IMG/VR virus record: IMGVR_UViG_3300045988_127364
Coordinates: 1-49,440 of that record
Origin: a virus
Length of the DNA: 49,440 nt
Reading direction: 5' to 3' (one strand)
Shown here: positions 5,148 through 29,210 of the stretch, piece by piece
Position numbering within the stretch: the stretch's first letter is position 1
Layout: each line of letters opens with the position of its first letter
Notes under the pieces: model-generated
What the model was told of the DNA's origin: nothing
The model's database searches: none
The model's input: only the letters and a program-made list of their open reading frames with translations
Position numbers and translations under genes: made by a program

Positions 5148-5744
5148 CTAGACTTCAAGCTCTCCTGAATCGATCAGTCGGCGCCTTATCTTCGTGTAGG
5201 TGCTCACGCCTATGCCGAGCTGCGCGCAGGCGTCGCGCCGCTTCTCCTTCCTGGCCTTCACCAGCGCCACATGGCGCTTGAACTCGTCAACGTCCACCTC
5301 GGCGGGCGGCCTGCCCTCGCGCCAGCCCGGTTTCTGCCTGGCGACGGCCTTGCCCTCCGCCGTGCGCTGGGCGATCATATCGCGCTCGAACTCGGCCATG
5401 GCGAACATGACGGAGACCATCATCTTGCCGACGGGCGTGTTGTCCAAGGTGCCCATGTTGAGCACGCGGACAGTAACTCCCCTGTCGAGGAGCGACCTCA
5501 CGACCTCGCAGCCTCCGGTGACGGTACGCGCGATTCGGTCGAGCTTGGTCACTACCAGCGTGTCGCCGTCTTGCAGGCGCTCCAGAAGGGCGTCGAACTC
5601 CGGTCGGTCGGTCGTGGTGCCCGTGAAAGCCTCCTGCACTATCTCGGTGCAGCCAGCCTCCAACAGCGACTCATGCTGTGCGTCTAGCGAGTTTCCGTCC
5701 CTGAGCTGCCCTTTCGTTGACACTCGGGCGTAACCGTAAATCAT
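5148..5744 (-). CDS. serine recombinase (resolvase/invertase family, small)
   Basis: N-terminal GYARVSTKGQ catalytic-serine motif; 198 aa with a C-terminal HTH-like region (resolvase/invertase size). Confidence 0.85.
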   Translation of the reverse strand: MIYGYARVSTKGQLRDGNSLDAQHESLLEAGCTEIVQEAFTGTTTDRPEFDALLERLQDGDTLVVTKLDRIARTVTGGCEVVRSLLDRGVTVRVLNMGTLDNTPVGKMMVSVMFAMAEFERDMIAQRTAEGKAVARQKPGWREGRPPAEVDVDEFKRHVALVKARKEKRRDACAQLGIGVSTYTKIRRRLIDSGELEV

Positions 5745-20965: not shown

Positions 20966-21042
20966 CCGATAACGGCAATCAAGATGAACAACACGACTAC
21001 GGGGGTGGCATATGCCGTTTCACGTTTACATGGAGCGGTCAT
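20941..21042 (-). CDS. small hydrophobic peptide (33 aa)
   Basis: GAGGGGGTGG RBS; ATGA overlap with the downstream gene. Confidence 0.25.
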   Translation of the reverse strand: MTAPCKRETAYATPVVVLFILIAVIGCIGGRFK

Positions 21043-22144
21043 GTCGCCACCCCCTCATGTTGGTCGCCTTGAGGTTCCAAATCGGCTTTAGGTGATGGAT
21101 GACCTCAACTGTCGGCTCGATAAGCCGCAATATCTCGTCGGCGCTCTTATATGCCTCAGGCGATTCGTCGAGCGTCGCTTCACAGGCGCTCGGGCAGTAG
21201 ATGCCAGCCTCTTTCATCTCTGATACAAACTTCTCGGTGTCCAAGTTGGCGCGTGCCTGCGCACGACTCATGACACGACCAGCGCCGTTGGGAGCGGACT
21301 CGTTCCAATCATTGTTGCCCTTACCGACGGCGATTACTGAGCCGTCGCGCATGTTGAACGGGATAAGGACCTTCTCGCCAGTGTGTGCGCTGATTGCGCC
21401 CTTGCGGATAACGTTGTCATCGGATATGTAGTTGTGCATCGTCTCGAATCGAGCGCTCAGGTCCAGCTTGATTCCAGTGCGTTCCTTAATCTGCTTGAGA
21501 ATGTGGAAACGGTTATCAGTAGCGTATCTCTGGCAGATACGCATGTCGTTGAGATATGCGCCTGCCGCAAAGCTCACGAGGTACTTGAGATCGCGAGGAA
21601 CATCTTCCTTGCACATTTCCTGCGCCATTGCCTGGTGATACTCGGCTACCTGTTTGCCCAGATTGCGAGAACCGGTGTGCACCACAAGATATTGATACCC
21701 ATACTCGTCCTCGTCGAGTTCAACGAAGTGGTTGCCGCCGCCCAGCGTGCCCATGGAGCACTCAATCCGCTCGACCCCTTTGAGATAGGCGTCATTCACA
21801 ACACCGTAGTCATTCTCAAGGCTGCATTTCGGCTCGTTGTGAACGCTGAACCCAGTTGGTACAGCTTTCTTCACGTCGCGGTTGAATTGAATCAAATCGT
21901 AGCGGTCGATACGCTCGTCGAGAGGGGCGCAGAGCATACCGCAACCGATGTCGACTCCGACCAGATTCGGAATAACCTTGTCGCCAAGGTTCGCTGTGAA
22001 CCCGATCACGCAACCCTTTCCGGCGTGGGCGTCGGGCATGATGCGAATCGTGGCACCCTCGAAAGCCGGACACGATGCAATCTCGTCAACCTGCTTCTTG
22101 GCGCTCTCCTCAAGATTCTCAGCGAAAATCTTTACATCTGCCAT
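21026..22144 (-). CDS. rtcB: RtcB-family RNA ligase
   Basis: IMPDAHAGKG, GGGNHFVEL, HTGSRNLG and MHNY motifs of the RtcB family. Confidence 0.9.
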   Translation of the reverse strand: MADVKIFAENLEESAKKQVDEIASCPAFEGATIRIMPDAHAGKGCVIGFTANLGDKVIPNLVGVDIGCGMLCAPLDERIDRYDLIQFNRDVKKAVPTGFSVHNEPKCSLENDYGVVNDAYLKGVERIECSMGTLGGGNHFVELDEDEYGYQYLVVHTGSRNLGKQVAEYHQAMAQEMCKEDVPRDLKYLVSFAAGAYLNDMRICQRYATDNRFHILKQIKERTGIKLDLSARFETMHNYISDDNVIRKGAISAHTGEKVLIPFNMRDGSVIAVGKGNNDWNESAPNGAGRVMSRAQARANLDTEKFVSEMKEAGIYCPSACEATLDESPEAYKSADEILRLIEPTVEVIHHLKPIWNLKATNMRGWRHDRSM

Positions 22145-23047: not shown

Positions 23048-23545
23048 CTAGAACGGAATGTCCTCGTCATAGACCTCGGCAGCGGCAACAGGAGCCGCCT
23101 GACGGGGCGCTGCGGGGCGAACGGGAGCAGGAGTGGGAGTGCTGATAACGGCACCGCCCTGCTCGTCTCGGCGGCTCATGAACTCAATCTCGTCCACGAT
23201 GACCTCCAGCTTGGAACGGCGCTCGCCGTCCTTCTCCCAGCTGGAGTAGCGCAGCTTGCCCTCGATGGCGACCTTGCTGCCCTTGGCGATGTAGTTGGCA
23301 ATCTTCTCGGCGCGTGTGCCGAACATGGTGCAGTCGACGAAGTTGGGATAGTCCTCCCACTCACCTGTACTCGGATTCTTTCGCCTGTCGTTGACGGCGA
23401 TTCCGAAGTTGAGCACCTGCGAACCGCTCTGGGTGGCGCGAAGCTCGGGGTCGCGGGTCAGGTTGCCCGTGACGCAAACTCGGTTGATGGACACTATTTC
23501 TTCCTCTCGTTGAGCAGCTTCACGATCTTGTCGCGCTGGCGGCAA
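23048..23545 (-). CDS. ssb: single-stranded DNA-binding protein
   Basis: OB-fold SSB signature with acidic C-terminal tail DEDIPF. Confidence 0.9.
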   Translation of the reverse strand: MPPARQDREAAQREEEIVSINRVCVTGNLTRDPELRATQSGSQVLNFGIAVNDRRKNPSTGEWEDYPNFVDCTMFGTRAEKIANYIAKGSKVAIEGKLRYSSWEKDGERRSKLEVIVDEIEFMSRRDEQGGAVISTPTPAPVRPAAPRQAAPVAAAEVYDEDIPF

Positions 23546-23808
23546 CCGAGGCTACCGAGACGTCGCTTCTCGTCGATGCCAAGCTCCTCAAGAATCTGCT
23601 TGGACTTGGTCTTGCCGACGCCCGGCAGGGACTCGATGAAGTAGCGCAGGCGCATACGCTGAGCCTCCGGGGCATCGAGCACTTCAAGCGGCTCGACCTC
23701 AATCCACTTCATCTTGCGGCGAAGCTCGGCGAGCTGCTTGCGCGCCTCGGTCGCCTTTTTTAGCGCCAGCTTGCGCTCCTCCTCAGTAAGCTCGTGGTTG
23801 ATGGGCAT
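23494..23808 (-). CDS. helix-hairpin-helix DNA-binding protein
   Basis: LPGVGKTKSKQILEELG HhH-like segment. Confidence 0.4.
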   Translation of the reverse strand: MPINHELTEEERKLALKKATEARKQLAELRRKMKWIEVEPLEVLDAPEAQRMRLRYFIESLPGVGKTKSKQILEELGIDEKRRLGSLGCRQRDKIVKLLNERKK

Positions 23809-26667: not shown

Positions 26668-27084
26668 CTACTCCTCGACGAAGCGCTTGATGATGTTGTT
26701 GAAGCTACCCTTGTTGCCGTAGACCTTCTTGGCGCTAGCTGCGAGCAAGCCCTTCTCTTTGTCGAACTTCTCGCGCTGGCACTTAAAGACGGTCTTGGTG
26801 CCGTCCTTCCAGTAGACGATCGTTGCCGGGTAATGGAAGATGACGCGGTCGATTGCGGGGACTGCGCGCCGCGTGCCCCAGTCAAGCGTGCCAATGCATT
26901 TGGGTTCACCAAGAGTACGCGTGAACATGTCATTCTTAATCGCGTTCAGAACGACGCGCTTGATGGAATCGCTCGAGTTTGACTTGCCGAGTGCATAGGC
27001 CTCGTAGCCATTGATTTCGAGCATGACCTCGGCGCTGGTATCGCCCATGTGGCTAGTAACAAGCATTTTGCCAACATTGACCAT
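26668..27084 (-). CDS. hypothetical protein
   Basis: 138 aa; C-terminal PATIVYWKDGTKTVFKC domain is paralogous to the 18670-19302 gene; first gene downstream of the tRNA array. Confidence 0.45.
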   Translation of the reverse strand: MVNVGKMLVTSHMGDTSAEVMLEINGYEAYALGKSNSSDSIKRVVLNAIKNDMFTRTLGEPKCIGTLDWGTRRAVPAIDRVIFHYPATIVYWKDGTKTVFKCQREKFDKEKGLLAASAKKVYGNKGSFNNIIKRFVEE

Positions 27085-27126
27085 CAGTTACCTCCTTCTT
27101 AGGTATTTGGTTTTGAGAAAAGTGGG

Positions 27127-27209
27127 CAGGCGCGGAGGGATTCGAACCCCCATCGGCGTTACCGCCACGGTTTTGGAGACCGCTGCTCTGCCTGTTGAGC
27201 TACACGCCT
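27127..27209 (-). tRNA. type-II-like tRNA (long variable arm) with CCA anticodon (nominally Trp), no encoded CCA end
   Basis: Manual fold: acceptor aggcgtg/cgcgcct, D arm gctc-aacaggca-gagc, anticodon loop CUCCAAA, 15-nt variable stem-loop ggcg-GTAA-cgcc, canonical T-loop TTCGAAT, discriminator G. Confidence 0.5.
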
Positions 27210-27289
27210 GTGTCTGGAGTGCTGCCCAGGAGTCGCACCTGGTTGCGCGGATTTGCACTCCGCTGCCTATCTGTTCGGCCAGCAGCACA

Positions 27290-27366
27290 TGGAGTCGCCA
27301 GAGGGAATCGAACCCACAACACGCGGTTTAGGAAACCGCCGCTCTATCCCATTGAGCTATGACGAC
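27290..27366 (-). tRNA. tRNA-Arg (CCU)
   Basis: Manual fold: anticodon loop UUCCUAA, T-loop TTCGATT, CCA encoded. Confidence 0.65.
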
Positions 27367-27461
27367 GAAAATGGTGCCGCATCTAGGTAACGCTCCCAGC
27401 CAGCCAATAGGCACCTGATTTACAGTCAGGCCCCCGTCTTTAGGGGAATACTGCGGCAGTG

Positions 27462-27552
27462 TGGAGGAGGGTGTGGGATTCGAACCCACGGATCGCTATC
27501 AACGACCTGCTGTTTTCTAGACAGCTGCAATAATCCTCTCTGCCAACCCTCC
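27462..27552 (-). tRNA. type-II tRNA with anticodon loop CUAGAAA (Ser-like, nominal anticodon AGA)
   Basis: 91 nt with long variable arm and canonical T-loop TTCGAAT, CCA encoded, discriminator U. The loop follows the tRNA-Ser CU-NGA-AA pattern with A at position 34. Confidence 0.5.
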
Positions 27553-27554
27553 GT

Positions 27555-27643
27555 TGGCGGAGCATGTAGGACTTGCACCTACGGGCCTCGTGTGAGGTCT
27601 ACGGGTTAGCAACCCGCTGCAGTAGCTACTGTGCCAATGCTCC
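27555..27643 (-). tRNA. tRNA-Ser (GCU)
   Basis: Type-II fold, anticodon loop UUGCUAA, discriminator G, CCA encoded; non-canonical T-loop TGCAAGT (G at position 55). Confidence 0.5.
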
Positions 27644-27646
27644 GAA

Positions 27647-27721
27647 TGGTTGTCGCGGTAGGTGCTGACCCTACGGCCTCCCCGTTATCAACAGGGTGCT
27701 CTACCGTTGAGCTACGCGACA
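27647..27721 (-). tRNA. tRNA-Ile (GAU)
   Basis: Anticodon loop UUGAUAA, discriminator A, CCA encoded; unusual T-loop GTCAGCA. Confidence 0.5.
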
Positions 27722-27722
27722 G

Positions 27723-27796
27723 TGGAGCCGCCTGCGGGAGTCGAACCCGCATTACCGATTTGGAGGACCGGCGCTCTACCTTTGAGCTAAGGCGGC
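27723..27796 (-). tRNA. tRNA-Gly (UCC)
   Basis: Anticodon loop CCUCCAA (C at position 33), discriminator U, canonical T-loop TTCGACT, CCA encoded. Confidence 0.55.
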
Positions 27797-27800
27797 GTGC

Positions 27801-27873
27801 CTCGCGCGGCAGGCCTCGAACCTGCGACCTCCCGGTTAACGGCCGGGCGCTCTACCAGCTGAGCTACACGCAA
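27801..27873 (-). tRNA. tRNA-Asn (GUU)
   Basis: Anticodon loop CCGUUAA (C at position 33), T-loop TTCGAGG, discriminator G, no CCA encoded. Confidence 0.55.
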
Positions 27874-27927
27874 ATGGTGGGGCAAACAATACGGAGGCAA
27901 TACATCTCCGCTGGGTTTGCCCCGTGT

Positions 27928-28002
27928 TGGTGGCGGGAGGGGGATTCGAACCCCCATGTCACGGCTTATGAGGCCGTTGAGTTACCCGTACTCTATCCCG
28001 CT
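27928..28002 (-). tRNA. tRNA-Met (CAU)
   Basis: Anticodon loop CUCAUAA, canonical T-loop TTCGAAT, A1:C72 mismatch, CCA encoded. Elongator versus initiator versus Ile2 is not resolved. Confidence 0.6.
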
Positions 28003-28003
28003 A

Positions 28004-28079
28004 TGGCTTCTCGGCAGGGAATCGAACCCTGATTGACTGAACCAGAATCAGCCGTGCTAAACCGTTACACTACCGAGAA
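28004..28079 (-). tRNA. tRNA-Gln (CUG)
   Basis: Anticodon loop UUCUGGU, T-loop TTCGATT, CCA encoded. Confidence 0.6.
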
Positions 28080-28490
28080 CGTGTTTGCCAGCGGCGACAG
28101 CAACCGACACGGCTGCTATACACATCTTCTTATGACGCGACCGCCGAAGGGCAAATGGCGGTCTGGGTTTTCAGATGCCCGTATCGGCTGCTGTCGCCGC
28201 TGGCGGCTGGGGCAAGGTCACAAAACCCCAGCGTGTCCGTGGTTACCGCGCGACGCGGTCTGGCACTCACGGCTTACCACCCGCACGGCGCGATGCCGAT
28301 TGGGTCCTACCCCTTTCGGGGCGAATATTCGGTACTCAAAGAGCGCGTCCCGTCTGGGACATTGCGCGGTTTCACGCGCGGACTCGGCTGCTAGTAGGGT
28401 GTTCAGCAAGGAGATGACACTGAACTGGCTCCGTGGTATGGGAGGAGAGAAGATGACAGTCGAGTCCGCGAGGGAAAACGCGGTTGGTGG

Positions 28491-28700
28491 CTACTGGTCT
28501 GAGTCACGCCCAGTAAGCCAGTCGAGCGAACAGCCGATAAAGTCGGCGAGGATGACGGCCTCTGATAGAGTGAACGGGCGCTCACCTGTGAGTTTTGCGT
28601 GAGTTGCGTTCCATCCGAGTCCTAGCAAATCGGCAACTTTTTGCTGCGTGATTCCCTTTGACTTGATGTACTCTGAGACATGCTTTGCGCAGGTATTCAC
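28491..28700 (-). CDS. Cro-like XRE-family HTH regulator
   Basis: 69 aa with HTH ITQQKVADLLGLGWNATHAKL; divergent from the cI-like gene. Confidence 0.65.
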   Translation of the reverse strand: MNTCAKHVSEYIKSKGITQQKVADLLGLGWNATHAKLTGERPFTLSEAVILADFIGCSLDWLTGRDSDQ

Positions 28701-28844: not shown

Positions 28845-29210
28845 ATGACCCTTCTAGCTGGGCTGCAAGGCATCCTCGACAGCCGAAATATGAAGCCTGC
28901 CGACTTGTGTAGGCTTTGTGGATTGAGCACTGGAGTGATGTCGAACTACATGAACGGAAAGCGTGTCCCGTCAATCGCAAACGCGATTACGATCGCCAAT
29001 GCGCTTGGCGTGACGCTCGACGAACTCGTCGGCAGGGAGCCGACGCGCTATGCGCCGCCGCCGCTGACAAAAGACGAAGAAGCGCTTCTAGACGACTACC
29101 GCAACTGCACGCCGACCTCTAAAGAGAAAATCGACGAGTACGCGGAGTTCCAGAGTGCTAAAAGCAAAGAGTCCACGCGAGATTCCAAGCGTTCTAAGAG
29201 GAGTGCGTAA
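28845..29210 (+). CDS. CI-like XRE-family HTH repressor
   Basis: 121 aa; HTH PADLCRLCGLSTGVMSNYMNGKRVPS; first gene of the lysogeny operon. Confidence 0.65.
   Translation: MTLLAGLQGILDSRNMKPADLCRLCGLSTGVMSNYMNGKRVPSIANAITIANALGVTLDELVGREPTRYAPPPLTKDEEALLDDYRNCTPTSKEKIDEYAEFQSAKSKESTRDSKRSKRSA

Follow-up and report, generated by a model that had tools for sequence, protein, structure and literature searches.

The question raised by the tRNA locus of virus record IMGVR_UViG_3300045988_127364 (49,440 nucleotides, nt; this whole stretch is referred to here as the window) is whether its non-canonical tRNAs are genuine and, if so, why they depart from the usual form. The locus is an array of eleven tRNA genes on the minus strand at 27124–28079, together with one 49-nt acceptor-like hairpin (mini-helix) that ends in ACCA. 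Comparison with related arrays suggests a functional, private tRNA operon that selection may have made unlike host tRNAs on the surfaces read by nucleases, an explanation that we hold with about as much confidence as doubt.

An earlier sequence-only reading of the window listed nine tRNAs in this region, and all nine are present at the place and on the strand described, as determined with ARAGORN and the Rfam model RF00005. The count of nine was short by two, the missed genes being tRNA-Cys(GCA) and tRNA-Tyr(GUA). In transcribed order the features are:

28087–28204, minus strand: leader element, a 26-bp stem enclosing 66 nt (inverted repeat; fold z -6.2)
28004–28079, minus strand: tRNA-Gln(CUG), with U1-A72, G73, an encoded CCA and the loop UUCUGGU (G37) (ARAGORN; Rfam 57.4 bits)
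27928–28002, minus strand: tRNA-Met(CAU), with an initiator-like body and A1·C72 (Rfam 56.6 bits, non-pair flagged)
27875–27923, minus strand: acceptor-like mini-helix, then A-CCA (fold energy)
27798–27873, minus strand: tRNA-Asn(GUU), with C32-C33 and the 3′ end GCA (Rfam 57.6 bits)
27723–27796, minus strand: tRNA-Gly(UCC), with C32-C33 and U73 (Rfam 66.5 bits)
27647–27721, minus strand: tRNA-Ile(GAU), with T-loop GUCAGCA (G54:G58 replacing U54:A58) (Rfam 56.4 bits)
27555–27643, minus strand: tRNA-Ser(GCU), class II, with T-loop UGCAAGU (G55) (Rfam 50.5 bits)
27462–27552, minus strand: class II tRNA with anticodon AGA (A34), loop CUAGAAA and U73, nominally Ser (Rfam 52.7 bits; ARAGORN)
27372–27457, minus strand: non-canonical tRNA-Tyr(GUA) (ARAGORN at a 90% threshold; the minimum free energy fold is a cloverleaf)
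27290–27366, minus strand: tRNA-Arg(CCU), with a U50·U64 mismatch in this copy (Rfam 61.6 bits)
27215–27288, minus strand: tRNA-Cys(GCA), with U73, a 3-bp D-stem and T-loop UGCGACU (G55) (ARAGORN default)
27124–27209, minus strand: tRNA-Trp(CCA), with A1-U72, G73, an extra-arm hairpin and 3′ GCCCA (Rfam 58.2 bits, with a 12-nt insertion)

With default settings ARAGORN reports ten tRNAs in 27123–28079 and none elsewhere in the window. Rfam reports nine of the eleven at 50.5–66.5 bits (E-values of 6e-8 to 2e-12) against a gathering score of 29 bits, and the low scores that had been offered as a possible sign of pseudogenes are thus not seen in these nine. Neither tRNA-Cys nor tRNA-Tyr was reported by Rfam even at E≤10, a search that across 27050–28200 returned tRNA and chance-level matches only and linked neither the mini-helix nor Cys or Tyr to any model. 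The relaxed-cutoff scan that the sequence-only reading suggested adds, at the 90% ARAGORN threshold, tRNA-Tyr(GUA) as the sole further hit on either strand of the window; false positives number 0 at this threshold, 15 at 85% and 66 at 80%. A ‘tRNA-Arg(TCG)’ at 28198–28284, seen only at 80% together with 66 other spurious hits, was rejected as a false positive, and this segment belongs instead to the long conserved stem-loop leader. Spacers of 1–90 nt had been described; a 95-nt one is tRNA-Tyr and a 53-nt one is the mini-helix, leaving real intergenic spacers of 1–5 nt. CCA is encoded by all members except Asn in this copy.

The manual folds behind the sequence-only reading are identical in register to the covariance-model alignment, so there was no mis-registration. 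Both the covariance model and ARAGORN place C33 in Asn (loop CCGUUAA) and Gly (loop CCUCCAA), as had been claimed, and both recover the aberrant T-loops of Ser(GCU) and Ile; the A1·C72 mismatch of Met is likewise flagged as a non-pair in the Rfam alignment and is a private allele of this copy. U33 is kept in the other nine of the eleven tRNAs, and GG in the D-loop, U55C56 and U54:A58 are all kept except in Ser(GCU), Cys, Tyr and Ile. The two tRNAs that had been described as type II, one with the loop CUAGAAA and one with a CCA anticodon, are also real. A long arm with the anticodon and identity of a class II tRNA (Ser, Leu, Tyr or Sec) is found in Ser(GCU), the nominal Ser(AGA) and Tyr, whereas the CCA tRNA has the long arm with a Trp anticodon and Trp identity (A1-U72, G73). 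We considered and rejected suppression or stop-codon recoding, as there is no CUA, UUA or UCA anticodon and the 7-nt register gives AGA as the anticodon of the CUAGAAA loop.

Are these genes decaying? We collected related arrays from 12 IMG/VR contigs, eight GTDB loci and 15 metagenome contigs, giving 32 distinct array sequences, and counted variation among unique alleles of eleven tRNA families from the first 21 sources. None of the 33 anticodon positions varies. Eleven base pairs show compensatory double substitutions, including pairs in Ser(GCU) (D-stem and anticodon-stem), Gly (D-stem), Cys and Trp (anticodon-stem in both), Arg and Met, and a further 15 pairs are altered on one side via G-U intermediates; variants that break a stem are mostly singletons. 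In tRNA-Arg there are two allele groups, three compensatory pairs apart. The T-loop is unchanged in 29 of 29 arrays for Ser(GCU) and 28 of 28 for Cys. tRNA-Tyr is present in 19 of the 32 arrays, and Ile with GUCAGCA in 17; a separate Ile gene with the canonical UUCGAAU is found in 12, and one array (L173) has both.

The array is also conserved well beyond its surroundings. Compared with four full-length arrays of a second phage clade (clade B), the window array is 93.5–94.4% identical, against 73% for RecE, 73–74% for the 300 nt upstream and about 50% for the downstream gene; against L007, which is without Asn and the spacer element, identity is 81%. Within its own clade the flanks are 87–100% identical and the array is 75–79% identical, because of gene gain and loss and different alleles, and allele combinations are reassorted among contigs. 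This excess of array identity over that of the flanks, with the reassortment of alleles, shows purifying selection and cassette exchange. The identity elements match the anticodons (Trp A1-U72 and G73; Gln U1-A72 and G73; Cys U73; Gly U73 and C2-G71; Tyr G1-C72 and A73; Asn G73; Ile and Met A73), so charging and use in translation are expected. The alternative offered by the sequence-only reading, that these are pseudo-tRNAs, thus appears untenable and is largely refuted by the comparisons, being contradicted by the 32 conserved arrays, the invariant anticodons and the compensatory stem changes. We note that eleven relatives (L002–L006, L012, L033, L161, L162, L173 and L178) have an extra tRNA-like gene between Asn and Ile that is not in the window (e.g. 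L003 3176–3255); ARAGORN at the 80% threshold calls it ‘Arg-ACG’. Its T-arm (UUCGAUC) is canonical, but the D region is atypical and a loop of 9 nt, AUUACGUUG, caps an anticodon-type stem of 7 bp.

The departures at position 33 are of two kinds, fixed and polymorphic. Asn has C33 in 30 of 30 arrays. For Gly, 19 arrays have C33 and 11 have U33, and the AGA class II tRNA has the U33 loop CUAGAAA in 17 and a C33 loop, CCAGAAA or CCAGAUA, in 13. Other loop positions are polymorphic too (Gln 32, U or C, and 37, G or A; Arg 32; Cys 32 and 38). Among 477 tRNAs from an unrelated phage background, 464 have U33 and 11 have C33, so the enrichment of C33 in the window is modest (2 of 11 tRNAs, p = 0.03; 3 of 12 gene families, p = 0.004). 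A C33 tRNA-Asn(GUU) with the same anticodon arm occurs independently in three other contigs. One, L182, is a phage-like tRNA array from soil, and its relatives L163 and L172 have U33; another, L164 (JACCEA010364602.1), looks giant-virus-like because it has genes for an mRNA capping enzyme and for a cap methyltransferase; and the last, L174, is a short contig. This recurrence argues for selection at position 33. No description of C33 in phage tRNAs, or of these features in Collinsella phage tRNAs, was found in the literature searched.

The T-loop departures belong to a wider pattern. The 17-nt T-arm of Ser(GCU) (GUAGG-UGCAAGU-CCUAC) recurs across more than 119 IMG/VR contigs whose environments are unrelated. 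The tRNAs that bear it have at least 14 specificities and lie within ordinary tRNA arrays. From unrelated loci that carry this T-arm (L036–L156, IMG/VR) we assembled 446 unique tRNAs. Those with U55 have GG in the D-loop in 345 instances and are without it in 21, and those with G55 have GG in nine and are without it in 67 (Fisher p = 3e-50, and 3e-24 once tRNAs with the retrieval 17-mer are removed); in the non-deduplicated set, 92 of 93 G55 tRNAs have AG in the D-loop. The G55 T-loops include UGCAAGU, UGCAAAU, UGCGAUU and similar variants (e.g. L049, L053, L055, L059 and L088). All three G55 tRNAs of the window obey the rule. Ser(GCU) has AG at the usual place of G18G19 in its D-loop CAGUAGCUAC, Cys has AG and no GG in GAACAGAUA, and Tyr, with G1-C72, A73, CCA, a CCCC/GGGG D-stem and a short extra arm, combines the D-loop UAAAGAC with the T-loop AGCGUUA (A54:U58, G55, C56). 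Because C56 is kept, we take the retained D-loop G to be G19 and the altered base to be G18, now A18; the G18-U55 contact appears to be replaced by an A18/G55 combination with G19:C56 retained.

The 54:58 pair varies in similar fashion. An inverted reverse-Hoogsteen pair, A54:U58 as in Tyr, occurs in eight of the background tRNAs, and G54:G58 as in Ile GUCAGCA in five. The Tyr T-loop AGCGUUA is identical in an unrelated phage tRNA-Phe (L076), and in the cultured coliphage phi92 a tRNA-Phe with A54:U58 carries a pseudo annotation. Judged by their recurrence, the odd T-loops are structural variants that belong to phage classes, and not apparent products of decay. The literature searched for such elbows holds no description of a class that combines a G55 T-loop with D-loop AG. 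As separate observations, standard models tend to miss G55/D-loop-AG genes or to label them pseudo, and about 50 of 120 contexts with the UGCAAGU T-arm are not called as tRNAs (L038, L043, L062, L063, L119, L142, L146, L150 and similar). These uncalled elements look like tRNAs in that an acceptor-type helix closes them, they hold large insertions (e.g. GCUCAAGUGGCGAAAGCG...GUAGGUGCAAGUCCUACCUUGAGUACAA), and they recur in several unrelated contigs.

Three tRNAs are unusual in other ways. Trp has a normal bacterial-type body with a 4-bp GNRA-capped hairpin (GGCG-GUAA-CGCC) in the variable region. The hairpin is kept in all arrays, usually with GUAA, although one relative has GAAA and another has a different loop on a 3-bp stem. 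Rfam and ARAGORN folds give a 7-bp acceptor and 5-bp T-stem with a class I D-arm; an 8-bp acceptor drawn by ARAGORN needs an additional C, which 14 of 29 copies lack. An allo-tRNA or Sec-like reading of Trp was rejected, since the geometry is 7/5 and not 8/4 or 9/3. Class I tRNAs with an added, often GNRA-capped, variable-arm hairpin are also seen in other phages (Thr, Lys, Cys, Pro, Arg, His and two Trp, in L041, L054, L055, L072, L098 and L136, together with a phi92 tRNA-Asn, L184 1591–1675), and a literature search for long-arm phage tRNAs found no description. The Met tRNA has the initiator-like features of a CGCGGG-type acceptor start, A11:U24 (D-stem GAGU/ACUC) and A73. Its anticodon stem has G29-C41 and G30-C40 but C31-G39, so the run of three G:C pairs of an initiator is not present. 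Its 1:72 pair is hypervariable among ten unique alleles, with C-G in seven and A·C, C·U and A·G in one each. In the AGA tRNA, A34 and U73 are both atypical for a bacterial tRNA-Ser, and none of the 477 background tRNAs is an A34 Ser-AGA.

The locus has two further structured elements. In the mini-helix a 3×3 internal loop separates a 9-bp outer stem from a 6-bp inner hairpin, A-CCA comes last, and its fold (-26 kcal/mol, z = -5.3) is matched by none of 200 shuffles. Its 31 copies fall into 11 variants, all ending in N-CCA; it is duplicated in some arrays, its outer stem shows a compensatory change from G4:C to A4:U, and there are two alternative inner hairpins. The leader lies directly 5′ of tRNA-Gln, its two 26-nt arms being 92% complementary, and the enclosed 66 nt hold a smaller hairpin and a conserved AAGAAGAUGUGUA(U/C)AGCAGC stretch. 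Many compensatory changes between the two phage clades preserve both leader stems. The leader could serve as a processing stalk for RNase III, or as an attenuator that controls entry into the tRNA operon. A consensus scan of the array strand from the cro-like gene to the first open reading frame (ORF) found no sigma-70-like promoter and no terminator. We also note a second 26-nt inverted repeat upstream (28365–28482) with the same 66-nt spacing as the leader, and that the leader arm at 28182–28204 can pair alternatively with 28517–28539 inside the cro-like gene.

Codon usage seems to account for little of the set. We compared about 13,700 phage codons with about 1,200 codons of four host genes beside the prophage described below. 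AGG is present at 13–14 per 1000 in the phage and 1.7 in the host genes, and GGA at 16 and 3.3, and the array has tRNA-Arg(CCU) and tRNA-Gly(UCC) for these. The other nine tRNAs read codons preferred in both genomes (CAG, AAC, AUC, UAC, UGC, UGG, AUG and AGC), while CGA and GCA are enriched in the phage yet have no phage tRNA. Rare-codon compensation thus explains at most two members, and the match between anticodons and codon usage that the sequence-only reading proposed to check holds for Arg(CCU) and Gly(UCC) and not for the remaining nine.

The genome that carries the array (ENA contig ERZ27272210 k141_105191) is a complete-looking temperate siphovirus-type genome, with large terminase, portal, tail and holin/endolysin genes as well as an integrase. 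Three genes are relevant to the setting of the array:

28845–29210, plus strand: cI-like repressor gene
28491–28700, minus strand: cro-like gene, divergent from the cI-like repressor gene
21026–22144, minus strand: gene for an RtcB-family RNA ligase, associated with the array and outside it (PHROG 1075, 1e-122; Pfam RtcB, 7e-63)

The cro-like gene, which had been taken to lie immediately beside the array, is 411 nt upstream of it and does not adjoin it. The minus-strand order is the cro-like gene, the structured leader, the eleven tRNAs with the mini-helix, and then recombination and replication genes, with RusA, RecE/RecT, a single-stranded DNA-binding protein (SSB), dUTPase, RtcB and a C5 DNA methyltransferase encoded downstream. 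RtcB is on the same strand as the array and 5 kb downstream of it. By tblastn it is found in 8 of the 21 sources at 98–100% identity (loci L007–L011 among them), all with arrays of the window's own type (clade A). A phage tRNase acting with its own resistant tRNAs was sought and rejected, as the Pfam and PADLOC searches of 45 non-structural ORFs gave no PIN, HEPN, PrrC or RloC-type domain; nearly all of the PADLOC matches listed (25 of 64 families) are to DNA methyltransferase models. Elsewhere in the genome, a small early protein (23494–23808, minus strand) has an S13-like H2TH domain (ribosomal protein S13/S18-type fold), and a serine recombinase gene with a Resolvase domain (5148–5744, minus strand) lies directly upstream of the large terminase gene.

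The host is Collinsella, a bacterium of the human gut. Megablast of the locus against GenBank phages gave no match, distant blastn gave generic tRNA similarity only, and the closest terminase relatives, about 40% identical, are from gut and Eggerthella phages. An exact 24-mer from the Ser(GCU) gene is present in eight GTDB genomes, six of them labelled Collinsella, the other two being a metagenome-assembled genome and a Sodaliphilus-labelled bin. One match is on a contig of 243 kb from the isolate C. aerofaciens 1001262st2_G5, so in that strain the phage is a prophage. The prophage adjoins two intact tandem host tRNA-Glu(CUC) genes (L029 4156–4331; L162 6133–6310; L012 78–154), which we observe to differ from each other at position 38 (C or A). 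In L029 both are fully canonical (U33, GG and UUCGAAU), and they are the only host tRNAs visible. There is no tRNA-Glu fragment in the phage window and no tRNA-Glu in the array, and attP therefore lies outside tRNA-Glu. TRNA-dependent lysogeny, in which integration inactivates a host tRNA gene and the phage carries the replacement (PMC10865867), was considered and rejected, since the neighboring tRNA-Glu genes are intact and the array has no replacement.

How, then, might such a set be used? We favor an operon that would be co-transcribed as the first part of the early lytic unit in a temperate Collinsella siphovirus. The 1–5 nt gaps and nearly universal encoded CCA suggest that RNase P and 3′ trimming would release the tRNAs, which could sustain translation once induction or infection has led to the depletion or cleavage of host tRNAs. 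The set would have been selected away from host tRNAs at loop positions 32, 33, 37 and 38, the elbow, the variable region and the 1:72 pair; RtcB, in the clade of the window, could reseal cut tRNAs as a backup, and the decoders of AGG and GGA would bring a second benefit. The early-operon start, divergence in loops that proteins read, polymorphic and reassorted alleles, and RtcB within the clade fit the model of resistant replacement tRNAs (PMC10264068), and the literature proposes or demonstrates escape from VapC, PrrC, PARIS and retron effectors by phage tRNAs whose anticodon loops are altered. Nuclease evasion, one of the two explanations offered by the sequence-only reading, is thus a plausible reason for the anticodon-loop changes, given the U33/C33 alleles, the polymorphism at 32, 37 and 38 and the RtcB of the clade. 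It is no explanation for the T-loops, which by the covariation are apparently compensated elbow classes recurring in unrelated phages.

Several observations weigh against selection for nuclease escape. We know of no Collinsella tRNA nuclease that has been characterised, and the host codon sample is small. RtcB is absent from clade-B loci that extend past the neighboring dUTPase gene, despite an equally odd array. Loop positions 32, 33, 37 and 38 vary at 8 of 44 sites, compared with 13 of 77 in the T-loop and 11 of 92 in the D-loop. For C33 itself there is no precedent as an escape change in the literature searched; the K. lactis gamma-toxin cuts U33C substrates normally, with no protection (PMC2275089), and Cas13a cleaves mainly at the first anticodon base. 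Some defects are private to this copy, namely the G-GCA end of Asn (1 of 30 arrays), U50·U64 in Arg and A1·C72 in Met, and these could mean relaxed constraint in an individual genome. The changes concerned (27798–27800, 27290–27366 and 28002/27931) may be real polymorphisms or metagenome consensus errors.

Among the rival explanations, plain supply and codon compensation, with the odd positions neutral or nearly so and tolerated under weaker and shorter-term constraint, is doubtful, though it deserves to be kept in view. AGG and GGA, both served by phage tRNAs, are 5–8 times commoner in the phage than in the sampled host genes, the anticodon-loop positions are no more variable than those of other loops, and similar oddities are scattered across many phages. 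C32 in tRNA-Gly(UCC) is reported to relax discrimination among GGN codons (Lustig et al. 1993), which also counts in its favor. Supply nevertheless leaves nine of the eleven tRNAs reading codons already abundant in host and phage, and CGA and GCA with no tRNA at all; and neutrality accounts neither for a C33 fixed in every Asn copy, with independent origins elsewhere, nor for the strict coupling of G55 to D-loop AG. Decay can be dismissed more readily, and we regard it as very improbable that the non-canonical genes are non-functional relics. The failure of Rfam to detect Cys and Tyr, the pseudo label that tRNAscan-type annotation gives to comparable phi92 genes, and the GCA end of Asn and U·U pair of Arg in this copy are what one might cite for it, and they are outweighed by T-loops identical in every Ser(GCU) and Cys copy, compensatory stem changes in these same two tRNAs, the absence of any anticodon change and conservation far above that of the flanks.

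Two other rivals concern what individual members do. The mini-helix, the G55-elbow tRNAs and Trp might act outside translation, as decoys or sponges for toxins that target tRNAs or modify CCA ends, or as donors of amino acids in non-ribosomal reactions. The non-proteinogenic tRNA-Gly of S. aureus, which is without G18/G19 and U55/C56 and binds EF-Tu weakly (PMC4574755), gives this some encouragement, as does a mini-helix that is only an acceptor-like stem with NCCA and no anticodon-like conserved loop. We consider it unlikely for the set, as the G55 tRNAs keep canonical anticodon loops (U33 and a purine at 37), invariant anticodons and matching identity elements, the class spans its many specificities in ordinary arrays of other phages, and G19:C56, the face that the ribosome and RNase P recognise, is apparently retained. 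Recoding, in which the long-arm Trp(CCA) or the A34 class II tRNA is mischarged (e.g. by SerRS) and alters the reading of UGG or UCN, is scarcely credible. A long variable arm is the main SerRS determinant, and A34 with U73 in a class II tRNA is atypical for bacterial Ser; the Trp body, however, has the full bacterial TrpRS set (A1-U72, G73 and CCA), the class I D-arm and the 7/5 geometry, and TGG is at an ordinary 14–17 per 1000. The favored explanation, a functional operon shaped by escape from nucleases, can also be extended, in a bolder form that we put forward tentatively and think rather improbable, to a single cassette in which, as one front of an arms race still under way in the human gut, every tRNA surface read by immune nucleases or toxins has been re-engineered. 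The surfaces would be U33 and its neighbors, an isosteric A18/G55 swap, the 54:58 pair, the GNRA-capped arm and the initiator-like 1:72 pair, with the NCCA mini-helix as an added decoy, and the alleles (U33/C33, 1:72, and the presence of Tyr, Phe and canonical Ile) would be kept polymorphic and recombined between phage lineages. If this were true, the A18/G55 elbow and the extra-arm class I tRNAs would be general viral tRNA architectures not previously described.

The escape of tRNA-targeting immunity by phage tRNA clusters is a current question, and the locus adds to it a compact case from a temperate gut phage with a culturable lysogen (C. aerofaciens 1001262st2_G5). Natural alleles that differ at single positions (U33/C33 in Gly and Ser, and 1:72 in Met) make the escape hypothesis testable by allele swaps. 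The genes that current tools miss or label pseudo (G55 with D-loop AG, A54:U58, G54:G58 and long-arm class I) are conserved, covarying classes across uncultivated phages, with consequences for viral tRNA annotation and as possible orthogonal tRNA scaffolds. Should the features prove neutral, the locus is just one more phage tRNA cluster.

The locus is a structurally unusual version of a known type of element, the phage tRNA cluster. The closest known systems are the putatively nuclease-resistant clusters of mycobacteriophage cluster C1 and the T5-like coliphages (van den Berg et al. 2023, PMC10264068), in which the tRNAs are likewise clustered, loop positions outside the anticodon vary and most members appear to have no rare-codon rationale; T5 tRNAs are reported to allow escape from PARIS and retron-Eco7. 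The window also has an RNA ligase (RtcB), as T4 has Rnl against PrrC damage. Unlike those clusters, this one is in a temperate 49-kb phage of a gut actinobacterium, has only 11 tRNAs and comes right after cro, and its changes at U33 itself, in the elbow (A18/G55 and the 54:58 swaps) and in the extra arm are not in PMC10264068. Trp can be compared with the nematode nev-tRNAs and bacterial allo-tRNAs (PMC5389517), which likewise have a long extra arm on a tRNA with a class I anticodon, although the allo-tRNAs have 8/4 or 9/3 geometry and Ser identity where Trp here has 7/5 and Trp identity elements. The phi92 tRNA-Asn (FR775895.2), with a GAAC-GAAA-GUUC arm that is GNRA-capped like that of Trp, is annotated, and no discussion of it was found in the literature searched. 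Met resembles bacterial initiator tRNA-fMet in its CGCGGG-type acceptor start, in A11:U24 and in A73. At 1:72 the picture is mixed, with an unpaired A1·C72 in this copy and C1-G72 in most relatives, and the third anticodon-stem pair differs, being C31-G39 and not G31-C39. For the elbow, the nearest precedent is the staphylococcal non-proteinogenic tRNA-Gly (PMC4574755), which is likewise without the canonical G18G19/U55C56 contacts and is stable and aminoacylated. Those tRNAs, every one of them Gly, have U18U19 or C18U19 and bypass EF-Tu to serve cell-wall synthesis, whereas here C56 and a D-loop G are kept, only 18 and 55 have apparently changed, and the change is found in Ser, Cys and Tyr and in many specificities elsewhere.

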